Below, piece by piece: positions 4,091-19,102 of a DNA stretch of 19,102 nucleotides; positions within the stretch are counted from its first letter, which is position 1, and the number at the start of each line of letters is the position of its first letter. This DNA comes from a virus (lineage: Duplodnaviria > Heunggongvirae > Uroviricota > Caudoviricetes), in the IMG/VR virus record IMGVR_UViG_2630968705_000015. The stretch is one strand, 5' to 3'. The notes beneath the pieces are model-generated. The model was not told where the DNA came from. It did not search any database and worked only from the letters and a program-made list of their open reading frames with translations. Made by a program: the position numbers and the translations under genes.

Positions 4091-4362
4091 GTATTCGTAT
4101 TGAAATTGGCGAACGTTATGTCGTTACCAGTGACAGCTTTCAGTTTATTCTCCACGAGAAAAAGAGAGCGGAAAGCGGTAAAAACGCCGGTCAGGAATGG
4201 CTGGCGGTGGTTGGTTATTACCCGAAATTAAGCCAGCTCGTTTCCGGCCTGATGCATCACGATATTCTGACCGGAAGCGCAAAGTCTTTTGCTGATTTAA
4301 ACGCGCAGGTTGAGCAACTCAGCAAGCGTTGTTCAGAGGCTTTTGGCTCATATGGCCGTTAA
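4087..4362 (+). CDS. Hypothetical early protein (91 aa)
   Basis: ATG at 4087 overlapping the upstream stop (ATGA), GGAG upstream. Last small ORF before A. Confidence 0.55.
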   Translation: MSIRIEIGERYVVTSDSFQFILHEKKRAESGKNAGQEWLAVVGYYPKLSQLVSGLMHHDILTGSAKSFADLNAQVEQLSKRCSEAFGSYGR

Positions 4363-6475
4363 AGCCTCCGGGCGTTTTGTCCCTCCGTCAGCATTTGCCG
4401 CAGGCACCGGTAAGACGTTTACCGGTGCTTACGCATGGAACGCGCCACGCGAGGCCGTCGGGCGCGAAAGACCCCTTACACGTGACGAGATGCGTCAGGT
4501 GCAAGGTGTTTTATCCACGATTAACCGCCTGCCTTACTTTTTGCGCTCGCTGTTTACTTCACGCTATGACTACATCCGGCGCAATAAAAGCCCGGTGCAC
4601 GGGTTTTATTTCCTCACATCCACTTTTCAGCGTCGTTTATGGCCGCGCATTGAGCGTGTGAATCAGCGCCATGAAATGAACACCGACGCGTCGTTACTGT
4701 TTCTGGCAGAGCGTGACCACTATGCGCGCCTGCCGGGAATGAATGACAAGGAGCTGAAAAAGTTTGCTGCCCGTATCTCATCGCAGCTTTTCATGATGTA
4801 TGAGGAACTCAGCGATGCCTGGGTGGATGCGCATGGCGAAAAAGAATCGCTGTTTACGGATGAGGCGCAGGCTCACCTCTATGGTCATGTTGCTGGCGCT
4901 GCACGTGCTTTCAATATTTCCCCTCTCTACTGGAAAAAATACCGTAAAGGGCAGATGACCACGAGGCAGGCATATTCTGCCATTGCCCGTCTGTTTAACG
5001 ATGAGTGGTGGACTCATCAGCTTAAAGGCCAGCGTATGCGCTGGCATGAGGCGTTACTGATTGCTGTCGGGGAGGTCAATAAAGACCGTTCTCCTTATGC
5101 CAGTAAACATGCCATTCGTGATGTGCGTGCACGCCGCCAGGCAAATCTGGAATTTCTTAAATCGTGTGATCTCGAAAACAGGGAAACCGGCGAGCGCATC
5201 GACCTTATCAGTAAGGTGATGGGCAGTATTTCTAATCCTGAAATTCGCCGGATGGAGCTGATGAACACCATTGCCGGTATTGAGCGTTATGCCGCAGCAG
5301 AGGGTGATGTGGGGATGTTTATCACGCTGACCGCGCCGTCAAAGTATCACCCGATACGTCAGGTCAGAAAAGGCGAAAGTAAAACCGTCCAGCTAAATCA
5401 CGGCTGGAACGATGAGGCATTTAATCCAAAGGATGCGCAGCGTTATCTCTGCCGTATCTGGAGCCTGATGCGCACGGCATTCAAGGATAATGATTTACAG
5501 GTCTACGGTTTGCGTGTCGTCGAGCCACACCACGACGGAACGCCGCACTGGCATATGATGCTTTTTTGTAATCCGCGCCAGCGTAACCAGATTATCGAAA
5601 TCATGCGTCGCTATGCGCTCAAAGAGGATGGCGACGAAAGAGGAGCCGCGCGAAACCGTTTTCAGGCAAAACACCTTAATCGGGGCGGTGCTGCGGGGTA
5701 TATCGCGAAATACATCTCAAAAAACATCGACGGCTATGCACTGGATGGTCAGCTCGATAACGATACCGGCAGACCTCTGAAAGATACTGCCGCGGCTGTT
5801 ACTGCATGGGCGTCAACGTGGCGCATCCCGCAATTTAAAACGGTTGGTCTGCCGACAATGGGGGCTTACCGTGAACTACGCAAATTGCCGCGCGGCGTCA
5901 GCATTGCTGATGAGTTTGACGAGCGCGTCGAGGCTGCACGCGCCGCCGCAGACAGTGGTGATTTTGCGCTGTATATCAGCGCGCAGGGTGGGGCAAATGT
6001 CCCGCGCGATTGTCAGACTGTCAGGGTCGCCCGTAGCCCGTCGGATGACGTTAACGAGTACGAGGAAGAAGTCGAGAGAGTGGTCGGCATTTACGCGCCG
6101 CATCTCGGCGCGCGTCATATTCATATCACCAGAACGACGGACTGGCGCATTGTGCCGAAAGTTCCGGTCGTTGAGCCTTTGACTTTAAAAAGCGGCATCG
6201 CCGCGCCTCGGAGTCCTGTCAATAACTGTGGAAAGCTCACTGGTGGTGATGCTTCGTTACTGGCTCCCACACCTTCTGAGCACGCCGCAGCAGTGCTTAA
6301 TCTGGTAGATGACGGTGTTATCGAATGGAATGACCCGGAGGTCTTGAAAGTGCTTAATCTGGCATTGAAAATAGAAGCATCACGTAAATGTACAAACAAA
6401 GGAGACACACGAGCAGGCATAGTTGGCGAGTCAACCGCGATTTTCAATGTACAGGATGCTGATAATCAACAATGA
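4352..6475 (+). CDS. A: Rolling-circle replication initiator (P2 A-like)
   Basis: HUH-type motif PHWHMM (about 5543-5560) and tyrosine motif GYIAKYISK (about 5697-5723), typical of RCR initiators. Start uncertain: track gives TTG 4310; first in-frame ATG is 4352, overlapping the upstream stop. Confidence 0.8.
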   Translation: MAVKASGRFVPPSAFAAGTGKTFTGAYAWNAPREAVGRERPLTRDEMRQVQGVLSTINRLPYFLRSLFTSRYDYIRRNKSPVHGFYFLTSTFQRRLWPRIERVNQRHEMNTDASLLFLAERDHYARLPGMNDKELKKFAARISSQLFMMYEELSDAWVDAHGEKESLFTDEAQAHLYGHVAGAARAFNISPLYWKKYRKGQMTTRQAYSAIARLFNDEWWTHQLKGQRMRWHEALLIAVGEVNKDRSPYASKHAIRDVRARRQANLEFLKSCDLENRETGERIDLISKVMGSISNPEIRRMELMNTIAGIERYAAAEGDVGMFITLTAPSKYHPIRQVRKGESKTVQLNHGWNDEAFNPKDAQRYLCRIWSLMRTAFKDNDLQVYGLRVVEPHHDGTPHWHMMLFCNPRQRNQIIEIMRRYALKEDGDERGAARNRFQAKHLNRGGAAGYIAKYISKNIDGYALDGQLDNDTGRPLKDTAAAVTAWASTWRIPQFKTVGLPTMGAYRELRKLPRGVSIADEFDERVEAARAAADSGDFALYISAQGGANVPRDCQTVRVARSPSDDVNEYEEEVERVVGIYAPHLGARHIHITRTTDWRIVPKVPVVEPLTLKSGIAAPRSPVNNCGKLTGGDASLLAPTPSEHAAAVLNLVDDGVIEWNDPEVLKVLNLALKIEASRKCTNKGDTRAGIVGESTAIFNVQDADNQQ

Positions 6476-6596
6476 TAGCTATTGTGACTATGCTAACCAT
6501 ATGAATCTATTGTGTGATTATGAGTAATGACTTTTTCTAATATTTGATTTTTAATGTAGTAACTTAGCTAATTTTAAAATTTGTAAAAGGATGTTT
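6476..6596 (+). promoter_or_regulatory. AT-rich intergenic region, presumed promoter of the SIR2/HerA cassette
   Basis: About 120 bp of very AT-rich DNA after the A stop, with several TTGnnn / TAnnnT hexamers (for example TTGATT 6544-6549, TAAAAT 6575-6580). No promoter could be assigned unambiguously. Confidence 0.3.
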
Positions 6597-7844
6597 ATGT
6601 CGATTTATCAAGGTGGTAACAAGTTAAATGAGGATGATTTTCGTTCTCACGTTTATTCCTTGTGTCAATTAGATAATGTTGGCGTTCTGTTAGGTGCTGG
6701 TGCTTCTGTCGGTTGTGGTGGGAAAACGATGAAAGATGTATGGAAATCGTTTAAGCAAAACTACCCTGAGCTTTTGGGAGCACTTATTGATAAATATCTT
6801 CTGGTTTCGCAAATTGATTCTGATAACAATTTGGTCAATGTTGAACTTTTGATAGATGAAGCAACTAAATTTCTTTCTGTAGCTAAAACTAGACGATGTG
6901 AAGATGAAGAGGAGGAATTCAGAAAGATATTAAGTTCATTATATAAAGAGGTTACGAAGGCTGCATTATTAACAGGAGAACAGTTTAGAGAGAAAAATCA
7001 GGGTAAAAAAGATGCGTTTAAATATCACAAAGAGTTAATTTCAAAATTAATTTCAAATAGACAGCCCGGTCAGTCGGCTCCGGCAATTTTTACAACAAAT
7101 TATGATTTGGCCTTAGAGTGGGCTGCAGAAGATTTAGGAATACAGTTGTTTAATGGTTTTTCTGGGCTACATACACGGCAGTTTTATCCCCAGAATTTTG
7201 ATTTGGCTTTCAGAAATGTAAATGCGAAGGGCGAAGCAAGATTCGGACATTATCATGCGTATCTCTATAAATTACATGGCTCACTTACGTGGTATCAAAA
7301 TGATAGCTTGACTGTTAACGAAGTTAGTGCATCTCAAGCATATGATGAATATATTAATGACATAATCAATAAAGATGACTTTTATCGCGGTCAACATTTG
7401 ATTTATCCAGGGGCGAATAAATATAGCCATACAATCGGCTTCGTTTATGGAGAGATGTTTAGACGTTTTGGGGAGTTTATTTCGAAACCTCAAACAGCGT
7501 TGTTCATAAATGGGTTTGGTTTCGGTGATTATCATATAAATAGAATAATATTAGGCGCGTTACTGAATCCATCTTTCCATGTTGTTATATATTATCCTGA
7601 ATTGAAAGAAGCAATTACCAAAGTAAGTAAGGGTGGCGGTTCGGAAGCTGAGAAAGCTATTGTTACTTTAAAAAATATGGCTTTCAATCAAGTAACTGTA
7701 GTTGGGGGAGGAAGCAAGGCATATTTTAATAGTTTCGTAGAACATCTACCATACCCTGTGCTCTTTCCACGAGATAATATTGTTGATGAGTTGGTTGAAG
7801 CAATTGCTAATCTTTCTAAAGGAGAAGGTAATGTCCCTTTTTAA
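6597..7844 (+). CDS. SIR2-like (sirtuin-family, predicted NAD+-hydrolysing) defence protein
   Basis: Motifs LLGAGAS (about 6694-6708), FTTNYD (about 7092-7106) and KLHGS (about 7273-7284) correspond to the GAGxS / TTNYD / HG signature of SIR2-like domains such as Thoeris ThsA. ATG at 6591 or 6597; 6597 has better spacing from the AAAAGG site. AT-rich. Confidence 0.8.
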   Translation: MSIYQGGNKLNEDDFRSHVYSLCQLDNVGVLLGAGASVGCGGKTMKDVWKSFKQNYPELLGALIDKYLLVSQIDSDNNLVNVELLIDEATKFLSVAKTRRCEDEEEEFRKILSSLYKEVTKAALLTGEQFREKNQGKKDAFKYHKELISKLISNRQPGQSAPAIFTTNYDLALEWAAEDLGIQLFNGFSGLHTRQFYPQNFDLAFRNVNAKGEARFGHYHAYLYKLHGSLTWYQNDSLTVNEVSASQAYDEYINDIINKDDFYRGQHLIYPGANKYSHTIGFVYGEMFRRFGEFISKPQTALFINGFGFGDYHINRIILGALLNPSFHVVIYYPELKEAITKVSKGGGSEAEKAIVTLKNMAFNQVTVVGGGSKAYFNSFVEHLPYPVLFPRDNIVDELVEAIANLSKGEGNVPF

Positions 7845-9663
7845 ACTTACTGAAATCTCGGCTATTGGATACGTTGTAGGATTAGAAGGGGAAAGAATTA
7901 GGATAAACCTGCATGAGGGGTTGCAAGGCAGATTAGCATCGCATAGAAAGGGGGTGAGCTCAGTAACGCAACCAGGAGATCTTATTGGGTTCGATGCAGG
8001 TAATATATTAGTTGTCGCAAGAGTGACAGATATGGCATTTGTTGAAGCGGATAAAGCGCATAAGGCAAATGTAGGCACATCTGATTTAGCTGATATACCT
8101 CTAAGACAAATTATCGCCTATGCAATTGGCTTTGTGAAAAGGGAGTTAAATGGTTATGTTTTTATATCAGAAGATTGGCGCTTACCTGCATTGGGTTCTT
8201 CTGCTGTTCCTTTGACTTCAGATTTTTTGAACATCATTTATAGTATTGATAAAGAAGAACTCCCAAAAGCGGTTGAATTAGGTGTGGATTCTCGAACTAA
8301 AACCGTTAAGATATTTGCAAGTGTTGATAAATTATTGTCGCGACACTTAGCCGTTCTTGGTAGTACAGGATATGGTAAATCAAATTTCAATGCTTTGTTA
8401 ACGAGGAAGGTTTCTGAAAAATACCCTAACTCAAGAATAGTTATTTTTGACATAAATGGTGAATACGCGCAAGCTTTTACAGGTATTCCAAATGTAAAGC
8501 ACACTATTCTAGGGGAATCCCCAAATGTTGATAGTTTGGAAAAAAAGCAGCAAAAGGGTGAGCTATATAGTGAAGAGTATTATTGTTATAAAAAGATACC
8601 ATATCAGGCATTAGGTTTTGCTGGGTTAATTAAATTATTAAGACCAAGTGATAAAACACAATTGCCCGCATTAAGAAATGCATTAAGTGCAATTAATCGG
8701 ACTCATTTTAAAAGCCGTAATATTTACTTGAAAAAAGATGATGGTGAAACTTTTCTTTTGTATGATGATTGTCGTGACACAAATCAAAGTAAATTGGCTG
8801 AGTGGTTGGATTTATTAAGGCGTAGACGTCTTAAAAGAACGAATGTATGGCCACCGTTTAAAAGTTTAGCGACTTTGGTTGCTGAATTTGGATGTGTAGC
8901 TGCTGACCGTTCTAATGGAAGTAAACGTGACGCGTTTGGTTTTAGTAACGTGTTGCCATTGGTAAAAATCATACAACAACTTGCAGAGGATATAAGATTT
9001 AAATCTATTGTTAATTTAAATGGAGGGGGTGAGCTAGCAGATGGTGGAACGCATTGGGATAAAGCTATGAGTGATGAAGTTGATTACTTCTTTGGTAAGG
9101 AAAAAGGACAAGAAAATGATTGGAATGTTCATATAGTTAATATGAAAAATTTGGCACAAGATCATGCTCCAATGTTACTTAGTGCATTGTTGGAGATGTT
9201 TGCTGAGATACTATTTAGACGTGGGCAGGAACGTTCGTATCCTACGGTACTTTTGTTGGAAGAAGCGCATCATTACCTGCGTGACCCTTATGCTGAAATT
9301 GACTCACAGATTAAAGCATATGAACGACTTGCTAAAGAAGGTAGGAAATTCAAATGCTCTTTAATTGTCAGTACTCAGCGACCCTCAGAGCTTTCTCCTA
9401 CTGTTTTGGCAATGTGTTCAAACTGGTTTTCGTTACGTTTGACTAATGAAAGAGATTTACAGGCTCTCAGATATGCAATGGAAAGCGGTAATGAACAAAT
9501 CTTAAAACAAATATCAGGTTTACCAAGAGGTGATGCTGTTGCATTTGGTTCTGCATTTAATTTGCCTGTAAGAATTTCAATTAATCAAGCAAGGCCAGGG
9601 CCAAAATCTTCAGATGCTGTTTTTTCTGAAGAATGGGCTAATTGTACAGAATTACGTTGTTAA
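7831..9663 (+). CDS. HerA/FtsK-like P-loop ATPase, partner of the SIR2-like protein
   Basis: Walker A GSTGYGKS (about 8359-8382), Walker B VLLLEEAHHY (about 9247-9276), STQRPSEL motif, and a roughly 175-aa N-terminal domain before the P-loop. Track start is TTG 7780; ATG 7831 follows an AAAGGAGAAGG site and overlaps the SIR2 stop by 14 nt. ATG 7783 is an alternative start. Confidence 0.8.
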   Translation: MSLFKLTEISAIGYVVGLEGERIRINLHEGLQGRLASHRKGVSSVTQPGDLIGFDAGNILVVARVTDMAFVEADKAHKANVGTSDLADIPLRQIIAYAIGFVKRELNGYVFISEDWRLPALGSSAVPLTSDFLNIIYSIDKEELPKAVELGVDSRTKTVKIFASVDKLLSRHLAVLGSTGYGKSNFNALLTRKVSEKYPNSRIVIFDINGEYAQAFTGIPNVKHTILGESPNVDSLEKKQQKGELYSEEYYCYKKIPYQALGFAGLIKLLRPSDKTQLPALRNALSAINRTHFKSRNIYLKKDDGETFLLYDDCRDTNQSKLAEWLDLLRRRRLKRTNVWPPFKSLATLVAEFGCVAADRSNGSKRDAFGFSNVLPLVKIIQQLAEDIRFKSIVNLNGGGELADGGTHWDKAMSDEVDYFFGKEKGQENDWNVHIVNMKNLAQDHAPMLLSALLEMFAEILFRRGQERSYPTVLLLEEAHHYLRDPYAEIDSQIKAYERLAKEGRKFKCSLIVSTQRPSELSPTVLAMCSNWFSLRLTNERDLQALRYAMESGNEQILKQISGLPRGDAVAFGSAFNLPVRISINQARPGPKSSDAVFSEEWANCTELRC

Positions 9664-9820
9664 TTACCTGATGTACATGGCTAGTGCAAGTTGGTAGCGC
9701 ATGTCTATATGCATTTATTTGCATGTGTTTTATTGAGTGAGCGCACAAGCTTGATGACCCGACAGGTATGTATTTAGACTGAATTTACACCTGCATTAAA
9801 ACCGCCCCACGAAGCGGGCG

Positions 9821-9839
9821 GGCGAGGCGGGGAAAGCAC
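9821..9839. other. cos cohesive-end sequence (P2-type 19-nt GC-rich site)
   Basis: GGCGAGGCGGGGAAAGCAC matches the P2 cohesive end as I recall it. Lies between the variable locus and the end of Q, as in P2. Confidence 0.65.
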
Positions 9840-9848
9840 TGCGCGCTG

Positions 9849-9953
9849 GCGGTGGTGCGGATTTTATTTTTTCAGCGTCTCAGCGCGTCGTGACGGCGCT
9901 TAGTCTGCCCGTTGAGGCGTTGGTGTGTCTGCGGGGTATTTTGTGCGGTGGTG
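9849..9953. repeat. Direct repeat GCGGTGGTG (9849-9857 and 9945-9953) in G-rich DNA flanking cos
   Basis: Read directly from the sequence. Possibly terminase-recognition elements; function inferred only. Confidence 0.3.
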
Positions 9954-9980
9954 AGCGTGTGAGGGGGTGATGACGGGGTG

Positions 9981-10003
9981 TAAAAAAGCCGCCCGCAGGC
10001 GGC
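9981..10003 (-). terminator. Rho-independent terminator after Q (minus strand)
   Basis: Minus-strand reading GCCGCC-TGCG-GGCGGC followed by TTTTTT, directly after the Q stop codon. Confidence 0.6.
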
Positions 10004-10008
10004 GATGT

Positions 10009-11043
10009 TCAGCCGTTGTCAGTGTCCAGTGAGTAGTTTTTAAATCGGATGACCTCCTGACCGAGCCAGCCGTTTATTTCGCGGATCCTGTCCTGTAACG
10101 GGATAAGCTCATTGCGGACAAAGACCTTTGCCACTTTCTCAATATCACCCAGCGACCCGACGTTCTCCGGCTTGCCCCCCATCAACTGAAAGGGGATGCG
10201 ATGCGCGTCCAGCAGGTCAGCGGCGCTGGCTTTTTTGATATTAAAAAAATCGTCCTTCGTTGCCACTTCACTGAGCGGGATAATTTTAATGCCGTCGGCT
10301 TTCCCCTGTGGGGCATAGAGAAACAGATTTTTAAAGTTATTGCGGCCTTTCGACTTAACCATGTTTTCGCGAAGCATTTCGATATCGTTGCGATCCTGCA
10401 CGGCATCGGTGACGTACATGATGTATCCGGCATGAGCGCCGTTTTCGTAATACTTGCGGCGGAACAGCGTGGCCGACTCATTCAGCCAGGCAGAGTTAAG
10501 GGCGCTGAGATATTCCGGCAGGCCGTACAGCTCCTGATTAATATCCGGCTCCAGCAGGTGAAACACGGAGCCGGGTGCGAAGGCTGTCGGCTCGTTGAAG
10601 GACGGCACCCACCAGTAAACATCCTCTTCCACACCACGGCGGGTATATTTTGCCGGTGAGGTTTCCAGTCTGATGACCTTACCGGTGGTGCTGTAACGCT
10701 TTTCCAGAAACGCATTACCGAACACCAGAAAATCCAGCACAAAGCGGCTGAAATCCTGTTGCGAAAGCCACGGATGCGGGATAAACGTTGAAGCCAGAAT
10801 ATTACGTTTGACGTAAATCGGTGAGCTGTGATGTACGGCAGCACGCAGGCTTTTTGCCAGACCGGTAAAGCTGATCGGCGGCTCATACCATCTGCCGTTA
10901 CTGATGCACTCGACGTAATCCAGAATGTCACGGCGGTCGAGTACCGGCACCGGCTCACCAAAGGTGAATGCCTCCATTTTCGGGGCGCTGGCGGTGATTG
11001 TTTTTGCCGCAGGTCGCGGTGTTTTCCCTTTTTTCTTGCTCAT
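10009..11043 (-). CDS. Q: Portal protein (P2 Q-like, 344 aa)
   Basis: ORF track. 344 aa as in P2 gpQ. Start overlaps the P stop by 1 nt. First structural gene after cos. Confidence 0.85.
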   Translation of the reverse strand: MSKKKGKTPRPAAKTITASAPKMEAFTFGEPVPVLDRRDILDYVECISNGRWYEPPISFTGLAKSLRAAVHHSSPIYVKRNILASTFIPHPWLSQQDFSRFVLDFLVFGNAFLEKRYSTTGKVIRLETSPAKYTRRGVEEDVYWWVPSFNEPTAFAPGSVFHLLEPDINQELYGLPEYLSALNSAWLNESATLFRRKYYENGAHAGYIMYVTDAVQDRNDIEMLRENMVKSKGRNNFKNLFLYAPQGKADGIKIIPLSEVATKDDFFNIKKASAADLLDAHRIPFQLMGGKPENVGSLGDIEKVAKVFVRNELIPLQDRIREINGWLGQEVIRFKNYSLDTDNG

Positions 11044-18314: not shown

Positions 18315-18744
18315 TGCCGTCACGGTACTGAAAACTAACCCCGATATGCTGCGGATATTCGTGGATAACGGGAGTATTGCCTCCACACTGGCGACGTCGC
18401 TGTCATTTGAAAAGCGTTACACGCTCAATGTCATTGTGACCGACTTTACCGGTGATTTTGACCTGCTCATCGTGCCGGTGCTGGCGTGGCTGCGGGAAAA
18501 TCAGCCCGACATCATGACCACCGACGAAGGCCAGAAAAAGGGCTTCACGTTTTATGCAGACATCAACAATGACAGCAGCTTTGATATCAGCATCAGCCTG
18601 ATGCTGACCGAGCGCACGCTGGTCAGTGAGGTGGGCGGCGCACTGCATGTGAAGAATATCCCGGAACCTCCGCCGCCGGAGCCGGTCACCCGCCCGATGG
18701 AGCTGTATATCAATGGCGAACTGGTGAGCAAGTGGGATGAATGA
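18277..18744 (+). CDS. R: Tail completion protein (P2 R-like, 155 aa)
   Basis: ORF track, ATG at 18277. 155 aa. Position after the lysis genes. Confidence 0.75.
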   Translation: MLKPDSLRRALTDAVTVLKTNPDMLRIFVDNGSIASTLATSLSFEKRYTLNVIVTDFTGDFDLLIVPVLAWLRENQPDIMTTDEGQKKGFTFYADINNDSSFDISISLMLTERTLVSEVGGALHVKNIPEPPPPEPVTRPMELYINGELVSKWDE

Positions 18745-19102
18745 GTTTAAGCGTTTTGAAGACCGGCTGACCGGACTGATTGAGTCGCTGTCACCGTCAG
18801 GGCGTCGGCGACTGAGTGCCGAACTGGCGAAACGTCTGCGGCAGAGTCAGCAGCGTCGGGTGATGGCGCAGAAAGCCCCGGACGGCACACCCTACGCGCC
18901 ACGTCAGCAGCAGAGCGTCAGAAAAAAGACCGGTCGTGTTAAGCGAAAAATGTTTGCGAAACTTATCACCAGTCGTTTTTTGCATATCCGCGCCAGCCCG
19001 GAGCAGGCATCAATGGAATTTTACGGCGGGAAGTCGCCGAAAATCGCCAGTGTGCATCAGTTCGGTCTGTCGGAAGAAACCCGTGCGTATTACCGTGAAG
19101 GA
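18737..19102 (+). CDS. S: Tail completion protein (P2 S-like), truncated by the window end
   Basis: ATG at 18737 overlapping the end of R. I translated it by hand: open frame MNEFKRFEDRLTGLIESLSP... runs to the window edge. Absent from the ORF track because it has no stop. Confidence 0.7.
   Translation, partial: MNEFKRFEDRLTGLIESLSPSGRRRLSAELAKRLRQSQQRRVMAQKAPDGTPYAPRQQQSVRKKTGRVKRKMFAKLITSRFLHIRASPEQASMEFYGGKSPKIASVHQFGLSEETRAYYREG

Follow-up and report, generated by a model that had tools for sequence, protein, structure and literature searches.

The open reading frame at positions 7831-9663 of the 19,102-nt stretch of DNA analysed here (the window) almost certainly encodes the HerA subunit of a two-gene SIR2-HerA (Nezha) abortive-infection system, carried as cargo by a P2-like prophage in its gpA-gpQ hotspot. 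This HerA is already known: the structure and biochemistry of a near-identical protein have been published. Table 1 lists the features of the window on which the assignment draws.

Table 1. Coordinates of the herA and sir2 genes, their motifs and domains, and the borders of the prophage hotspot that holds them.
Feature	Position	Strand	Remarks
P2 gene A (replication nickase)	4352..6475	+	hotspot left border; Pfam Phage_GPA E 3.8e-122
Low-GC cargo (SIR2-HerA cassette)	6348..9791		3.4 kb, in place of the phage P2 old/tin region
sir2	6591..7844	+	SIR2-family NADase effector; 8J4U chain A match, PADLOC, NCBIfam
herA	7831..9663	+	610 aa; almost certainly the HerA ATPase of the E. coli anti-phage system SIR2-HerA (Nezha)
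N-terminal all-beta (HAS-type barrel) domain	7867..8211	+	aa ~13-127, as predicted in the AlphaFold2 model
Walker A / P-loop GSTGYGKS	8359..8382	+	aa 177-184
Walker B LLLEEAHH	9250..9273	+	aa 474-481
STQRP motif	9370..9384	+	aa 514-518, where a core beta-strand in the RecA-like domain ends
P2 cos cohesive-end sequence GGCGAGGCGGGGAAAGCAC	9821..9839	+	identical to cosL, nt 1-19 of NC_001895
P2 gene Q (portal)	10009..11043	-	hotspot right border; Pfam Phage_portal, RefSeq annotation

The identity of the protein follows most directly from comparison with solved structures. It matches HerA at 609 of 610 residues in the E. coli SIR2-HerA / Nezha complexes (PDB 8J4U chain M and 8SU9, 8SUB, 8SUW, 8UAE and 8UAF), the sole difference from the solved chain being K301 in place of E301, in a column that varies freely among the HerA homologues of a 53-sequence alignment. 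The PADLOC HerA model PDLC02185 covers aa 7-605 with E 1.6e-277, and the HerA central domain, Pfam PF01935, is recognised at 74 bits (cut-off 23.2, E 2.4e-20), which bears out the proposal of a HerA-like ATPase in the first-pass annotation. At an E-value threshold of 0.01, the PDB chains matched by the 53-homologue profile belong to the HerA family only. The best NCBIfam match is HerA_antiphage (E 1.3e-213), whose 710.7 bits fall short of the 800-bit equivalog cut-off of that model, and RefSeq names the protein merely "ATP-binding protein" because its score lies under this curated cut-off. Such a label on an anti-phage HerA just below the HerA_antiphage cut-off is an annotation gap.

Translation of 7831-9663 on the plus strand gives a single open frame of 610 aa and a stop codon. 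A mechanical list of open reading frames starts herA at an upstream TTG (7780), but the ATG at 7831 is preferred because it is preceded by the Shine-Dalgarno-like AAAGGAGAAGG, is the annotated herA start in RefSeq for the matching genome, with the same CDS coordinates, and encodes residue 1 of the solved HerA protein. The Walker A motif that had been placed about 176 residues from the start, and the Walker B and STQRP motifs said to lie downstream of it, are all found in the translation, giving the protein a P-loop of the form GxxGxGK[ST] and a hydrophobic Walker B strand that ends in acidic residues. Across 53 homologues, down to 39% identity, the invariant positions are G177, G180, G182 and K183 of Walker A, L476, E477, E478, A479 and H480 of Walker B, and all five residues of STQRP (S514, T515, Q516, R517 and P518). 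The AlphaFold2 model assigns Walker B to strand E472-477 and STQRP to strand E509-515. Within the latter motif the invariant Q516 and R517 are putative catalytic residues. Judged from sequence, family-model scores and invariant motif residues place the HerA assignment far beyond chance.

The region ahead of the P-loop is where structure prediction contributes most. A single-sequence AlphaFold2 run gave an unusable model (pLDDT 34.7), and a model based on the 53-sequence alignment was used instead (pLDDT 84.7, pTM 0.83). In this model aa 13-127 are all beta, with nine strands (E13-19, 22-27, 35-38, 41-44, 51-55, 59-71, 91-105, 108-112 and 124-127), and the N-terminal beta-barrel is followed by a RecA-like ATPase core that is interrupted by a helical insertion (aa ~258-421). 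In Foldseek the complete model superposes on solved E. coli HerA at TM 0.76-0.91 and on Sulfolobus HerA 4D2I at E 4.8e-26, in both cases over about 600 columns, or nearly the entire query. All of the top 50 Foldseek matches are HerA, the best being 8SUB, 8J4U, 8UAE and 8SUW, whose titles include "E. coli SIR2-HerA complex", "Nezha system" and "12:6 with ATPgammaS". The barrel is invisible to sequence comparison: for aa 1-165 there were zero Pfam matches at E <= 10, and a phmmer search of the PDB returned the self-match alone. A HAS-type beta-barrel ahead of the HerA ATPase core, as the first-pass annotation had suggested, is recognisable by predicted structure only. In related SIR2-HerA structures the N-terminal barrel is the SIR2-docking surface (PMC11472057). 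The window protein would form a hexameric ring, the 609/610-identical entries being titled "Sir2_HerA complex (12:6)".

The partner gene, sir2, lies directly upstream of herA on the same strand, and the two share a 14-nt overlap between the sir2 stop and the herA start; the sir2 open frame begins at 6591, and RefSeq and the PDB construct start the protein at 6597. Its product aligns with 8J4U chain A, the solved partner chain, over aa 3-417 (E 1.6e-284), matches the PADLOC SIR2 model PDLC02186 (E 4.3e-190) and, at 507.2 bits, exceeds the NCBIfam SIR2_antiphage cut-off of 500. The matching genome annotates this product as WP_021577683.1, which is the accession of the published EcSIR2 (PMC11472057). 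The order of SIR2 followed by HerA is also kept where the genomic surroundings are unrelated, with HerA identities of 60% and 41%. Membership of the SIR2-HerA system, a further proposal of the first-pass annotation, is upheld by the adjacent SIR2 gene in the same operon, by PADLOC models for both proteins and by identity with the characterised E. coli pair.

Over its 19,102 nt the window differs from E. coli APEC E19025 at a single position; it is a P2-like prophage of E. coli, and its SIR2-HerA locus is 99.7% identical to that of NCTC11129. DNA homology to P2 and P2_4E6b stops at 6347 and restarts at 9792, and the cargo in between has a GC content of 0.36-0.37 versus 0.53-0.57 in the flanking phage genes. 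On the right, the cos sequence is present as one exact match, where zero are expected by chance, and the gene Q region shows 97% DNA identity to P2 nt 1-1500. In P2 itself old and tin sit between gene A and cos. The interval between gpA and gpQ of P2 is a known defence hotspot, and an entry in its catalogue reads "SIR2 + HerA (Gao et al., 2020)" (PMC9122126). On the left, the 3' end of gene A has been swapped for cargo sequence: protein homology to P2-like gpA ends at aa 673 of 707 (P2 gpA has 761 aa), and in the matching genome RefSeq treats gene A as a pseudogene that lacks its C-terminus. Gene S of that genome (APEC E19025) also holds an IS21-family insertion, from which defective assembly of virions is predicted. 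The same swap of the last ~90-100 gene A codons is present in 20 of 20 complete E. coli genomes that bear the cassette. Homologues on plasmids do not exceed 40% identity. At the left junction of the cargo a 14-nt sequence is repeated perfectly in direct orientation (6292-6305 and 6349-6362); it is chance-like and no mechanism is claimed for it.

Other scans of the DNA returned little. A search for repeats flanking the cargo gave short chance-like matches only, Rfam and tRNA scans of the window found nothing, and a promoter scan of 6300-10100 yielded 11 sites versus 12 expected, which is uninformative, and the cassette is assigned no promoter. The altered gene A could mean that Nezha has become fixed on a replication-impaired, domesticated lineage of P2-like prophages, or that the hybrid gpA tail does something connected with the defence cassette; a lesser possibility is a change in regulation of the complex by K301. 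These ideas are considered very unlikely.

Could the frame instead encode a VirB4/TraC/TrwB-type ATPase of conjugation or type IV secretion, or an FtsK-like DNA pump? Matches of this sort do occur: Pfam TrwB_AAD_bind at E 2.1e-5 (aa 170-218), FtsK_SpoIIIE at E 0.0057, and NCBIfam TrbE at E 1.8e-5 and VirB4 at E 1.6e-4 (VirB4 over aa 432-520), the latter two far under their cut-offs. These matches are weak, most of them cover the P-loop region alone, and shared ancestry within the FtsK-HerA superfamily would account for them. HerA models, however, match at full length and at least 200 orders of magnitude better than the VirB4/TrwB types; conjugation ATPases number 0 among the PDB sequence matches (E <= 0.01) and 0 among the top 50 fold matches; and there are no conjugation genes near herA, whose neighbours are SIR2 and P2 phage genes. 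With PADLOC, PDB identity, NCBIfam and Foldseek all pointing to HerA, the conjugation reading is refuted and is held to be very improbable.

Another reading makes the protein a DNA-repair HerA, housekeeping or phage, like that of the archaeal HerA-NurA pair, with resection of DNA ends for the P2 prophage as its task. It does share the fold of Sulfolobus HerA 4D2I and of Thermococcus HerA-NurA 9X1L/9X1M, and NCBIfam repair-HerA models match at E ~1e-27. These matches, however, are confined to the C-terminal ATPase half and lie far under the cut-offs, a NurA gene is absent and the operon partner is SIR2. Moreover, the cassette is low-GC cargo that P2 itself lacks, as do all isolated phages of the phage collection, where the portal flank alone matches. 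The SIR2 partner, the partial sub-cut-off matches and the cargo status lead to rejection of the repair reading, to which only a slight chance is given. An OLD-family or other P2 exclusion ATPase is extremely unlikely and is refuted by domain and fold searches: P2 carries old at the equivalent position, but old/tin of P2 has no homologous DNA in the window, there are no OLD, AAA_15/21 or Toprim matches in Pfam, PADLOC or NCBIfam, and the Foldseek fold matches are all HerA.

The frame is thus best read as the HerA of SIR2-HerA, and the HMM searches and structure prediction that the first-pass annotation had proposed as checks both returned HerA (anti-phage HerA models at E 1e-213 to 1e-277). No observation contradicts the assignment. 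What it had named as evidence against itself, best matches to VirB4/TraC or OLD proteins or a fold other than HerA, did not appear, VirB4-type models reaching E 2e-4 to 2e-5 and OLD models giving none. The same annotation had been written without recognition that this exact protein was already solved and characterised. The discovery value is small, since publications already cover the protein's structure, enzymatic activities and role in defence, and its place in the P2 hotspot is catalogued. The case serves as a positive control: raw DNA read at the level of motifs can lead to the correct identification of a defence ATPase.

The primary papers on the E. coli SIR2-HerA / Nezha complex are two in Mol Cell, one by Tang et al. 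(2023) and one by Shen et al. (2023), and the latter reportedly describes HerA-dependent activation of the SIR2 NADase. The characterised EcSir2-HerA originates from strain NCTC 11129 (PMC11514289). HerA-dependent activation of SIR2 NADase has been described, E. coli system included (PMC11472057), in agreement with the earlier claim that HerA drives assembly and activation. According to three later accounts that cite this work (PMC13434337, PMC11472057, PMC11514289), the HerA hexamer ring of the NCTC 11129 allele (E301) docks by its N-terminal face on a SIR2 dodecamer, assembly activates the SIR2 NADase and stimulates the HerA ATPase, and the E. coli complex has helicase and nuclease activities too. 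The same accounts hold that physiological ATP restrains the NADase, helicase and nuclease, and that the drop in ATP during phage infection lifts this restraint, so that NAD+ is depleted and growth stops before phage release (PMC13434337, PMC11472057, PMC11514289). NAD+ depletion and abortive infection have also been reported in bioRxiv 10.1101/2021.12.14.472415, and phage resistance via NAD+ depletion is described for the NCTC 11129 allele and homologues (PMC11514289; PMC13434337; bioRxiv 10.1101/2021.12.14.472415). The prophage-borne K301 copy in the window would act like the NCTC 11129 allele, and it may shield the lysogen, and hence the prophage, from competing phages such as lambda.

Among known systems, the E. 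coli SIR2-HerA / Nezha of NCTC 11129 has the same overlapping two-gene operon and the same P2-like prophage junctions as the window; it differs in carrying E301 rather than K301 and in its host strain, the window being APEC E19025-like. The systems of Paenibacillus sp. 453MF (8WIV, 8WLD and others; PMC11472057) and S. aureus (8YHO, 8YHX; PMC11514289) follow the same two-gene logic, in which HerA binding activates the SIR2 NADase, and their HerA proteins share the N-terminal beta-barrel, RecA-like core and helical bundle of the window HerA (Foldseek E ~1e-33, TM ~0.6, about 20% identity). Paenibacillus PsHerA (696 aa) carries an additional arm domain at its C-terminus and associates with a 14-mer of SIR2, whereas EcSIR2 has a C-terminal extension and makes a distinct contact with the EcHerA N-terminus (PMC11472057). 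The E. coli Sir2-HerA types I-III belong to the same family and lead to the same abortive-infection outcome as Nezha but are just ~13-22% identical to it, and type III works with a HerA nickase and phage SSB triggers (PMC13434337); the window system belongs to cluster 1 (Nezha) and not to types I-III of that scheme. In the HerA-DUF4297 defence system (9C1M, 8XAU, 8ZIQ) a homologous HerA scaffold activates its partner effector, as in SIR2-HerA, but that effector is a DUF4297 nuclease rather than SIR2, and identity in structural alignments is about 20%. The archaeal HerA-NurA proteins (4D2I, 9X1L), founding members of the fold, combine a HAS-barrel with a RecA-like hexameric translocase, as the window HerA is predicted to do, but at 16-17% identity and with a NurA nuclease as partner they serve DNA repair, not immunity.

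Two genes make up the low-GC stretch of this prophage, one for a SIR2-domain protein (sir2) and one for a HerA ATPase (herA). Translated, herA is one uninterrupted reading frame of 610 codons closed by TAA, and the coordinates and three motifs given for it in the first-pass annotation proved exactly right. A mechanical ORF list puts the start further upstream, at a TTG (7780); the ATG at 7831 is to be preferred, because it is preceded by the Shine-Dalgarno-like sequence AAAGGAGAAGG, is the RefSeq start in the matching genome and encodes residue 1 of the solved protein. Residues K183, E477, E478, Q516 and R517 are invariant in an alignment of 53 homologues.

Profile searches place the product in the HerA family. 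The Pfam HerA central domain PF01935 reaches 74 bits (cut-off 23.2), and matches to TrwB and FtsK are weak and confined to the P-loop. The PADLOC HerA model PDLC02185 covers amino acids 7-605 (E 1.6e-277), and the SIR2 model PDLC02186 matches the upstream product (E 4.3e-190). Solved structures gave the decisive evidence: the herA product is identical at 609 of 610 positions to the HerA chain of 8J4U, 8SU9, 8SUB, 8SUW, 8UAE and 8UAF, and amino acids 3-417 of the SIR2 product match the SIR2 chain in these structures (E 1.6e-284). Titles of the matching entries, also recovered by Foldseek, read 'Structure of HerA-Sir2 complex from Escherichia coli Nezha system' and 'E. coli SIR2-HerA complex'. 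The sole difference is a lysine at position 301, glutamate in the structure, at a position where the 53 homologues differ freely (K, V, P, E, A, Q). The SIR2 product exceeds the NCBIfam SIR2_antiphage cut-off; the top NCBIfam match of HerA is HerA_antiphage (NF042943; E 1.3e-213), at 710.7 bits, below the 800-bit equivalog cut-off, which is why a structurally solved HerA carries the RefSeq name 'ATP-binding protein'. Some homologues are mislabelled 'nucleotidyltransferase'.

The long region before the P-loop had been read as consistent with a HAS-barrel. Pfam gave no match to amino acids 1-165 at E <= 10, phmmer against the PDB returned only the self-hit, and AlphaFold2 run on the single sequence produced no usable model (pLDDT 34.7). 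Since these approaches failed, a second prediction was run from an alignment of 53 of the 718 homologues found at E <= 1e-20, which come from Enterobacterales, Vibrio, Shewanella, Aeromonas and more distant metagenomic sequences. This model (pLDDT 84.7, pTM 0.83) has nine beta-strands and no long helix in amino acids 13-127, followed by a RecA-like alpha/beta core; Walker A follows strand 172-176, strand 472-477 bears Walker B, and a largely helical insertion (about 258-421) splits the core. Its best PDB fold matches are the E. coli SIR2-HerA chains (Foldseek E down to 2e-103, TM 0.76-0.91). The rest of the best 50 are all HerA: Paenibacillus SIR2/HerA, HerA-DUF4297, S. aureus HerA, Thermococcus HerA-NurA and Sulfolobus HerA 4D2I (E 4.8e-26 over 609 alignment columns). 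A 53-sequence profile against the PDB likewise retrieved HerA-family chains only (E <= 0.01). The predicted structure supports the N-terminal barrel domain, and the family assignment stands: neither VirB4/TraC or OLD proteins as best hits nor a non-HerA fold was found.

Coordinates of features in the window
Feature	Position (nt)	Strand	Remarks
Hypothetical ORF, 105 aa	1-318
Region upstream of integrase	1-772
Gene A	4352-6475
P2 ori nick site	about 6210		P2 nt 29892
Direct repeat AGTGCTTAATCTGG, copy 1	6292-6305		14 nt, perfect
Direct repeat AGTGCTTAATCTGG, copy 2	6349-6362		14 nt, perfect
End of P2 homology	6347		aa 673 of 707 in gene A
Gene A/cargo junction	~6347-6373
sir2	6591-7844	+	overlaps herA by 14 nt
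herA	7831-9663	+	GSTGYGKS aa 177-184; LLLEEAHH 474-481; STQRP 514-518
Return of P2 homology	9792
P2 cohesive end (cos) GGCGAGGCGGGGAAAGCAC	9821-9839		exact, 19 nt; 158 nt downstream of herA stop
Terminator-like hairpins	9802-9859, 9988-10005
Hairpin matching tQ	9988-10003	-
Gene S, truncated	18737-19084		tail/virion morphogenesis

The window spans the left two-thirds of a P2-like prophage and differs at one base in 19,102 from chromosome 1851929-1871030 of E. coli O78:H51 APEC E19025. The order is int, C, cox, B, orf80-83, A, the cassette, cos, Q and P (minus strand), O, N, M, L, X, Y, K, lysA/B/C, R and S. Between host yegS, outside the window, and the integrase lie the hypothetical ORF and an AT-rich spacer of about 450 nt, where the attachment site should fall (1-772). 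Gene S is cut by the right edge of the window; beyond it, in APEC E19025, an IS21-family element (ISEc12, istA/istB; L001 28770-31072) interrupts the gene, which probably leaves this particular prophage defective in making virions.

The 3.4-kb cargo between the P2 homologies has 36-37% GC against 53-57% in the phage genes. Given the distance from the herA stop to cos, the cassette immediately adjoins the packaging site, an arrangement described for P2/P4 hotspots. It occupies the position of orf91, tin and old in P2, which is the cos-proximal gpA-gpQ defence hotspot of P2-like phages (Rousset et al. 2022, PMC9122126); supplementary tables of that paper list 'SIR2_2 + DUF87' arrangements and a 'SIR2 + HerA (Gao et al., 2020)' system. 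The promoter scan gave sites at chance level, and Rfam and tRNA scans no matches. Terminator-like hairpins cluster near cos and after gene Q (7 against 2.5 expected in the scanned region); one corresponds to tQ of P2, and the others, flanking cos, may end the cassette's transcript.

At the left junction gene A departs from that of P2, whose protein has 761 aa: its final ~90-100 codons are exchanged for ~34-42 unrelated ones that continue into the cargo. The RefSeq annotation calls it a pseudogene; the ori nick site is kept. The second copy of the direct repeat lies exactly where gene A homology ends, and the repeat may be microhomology used in acquiring the cargo, or else coincidence; the repeats around the cargo are short and probably fortuitous. 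The junction is common to 20 of 20 E. coli genomes with the cassette, which is found whole, each time with the same flanks, in 20 of 5,426 complete genomes. Among them is NCTC11129 (99.7% identity), source strain of the characterised EcSir2-HerA (PMC11514289). The phage collection held no isolated phage with the cassette, and plasmids no homologue above 40% identity. At 60% and at 41% HerA identity the SIR2-then-HerA pair persists in quite different neighbourhoods, so it is the pair that forms the functional unit, with the prophage just one of its vehicles.

This analysis establishes identity, operon structure, domain architecture, conserved catalytic residues and mobile-cargo context. In the published E. 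coli complex, an EcSIR2 dodecamer is bound by EcHerA through an interface involving the HerA N-terminus, the SIR2 NADase is activated when HerA binds, and the HerA ATPase is stimulated by bound SIR2 (PMC11472057); in related complexes the beta-barrels of HerA form the SIR2-docking surface (PMC11472057, PMC11514289). One report describes a quick drop in ATP in infected E. coli carrying Nezha, the anti-phage SIR2-HerA system, and proposes that this relieves the inhibition that ATP exerts on NADase, helicase and nuclease, with NAD+ collapse and growth arrest as the outcome (PMC13434337). The K301 allele would be expected to act identically, and the pair would protect the lysogen against competing phages.

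The first-pass annotation correctly identified an ordinary, published defence gene. The SIR2-HerA pair in the window is none other than the known system (cluster 1/Nezha in the E. coli classification of 2026), and is not among the divergent type I-III Sir2-HerA systems of E. coli, which share ~13-22% identity with Nezha.
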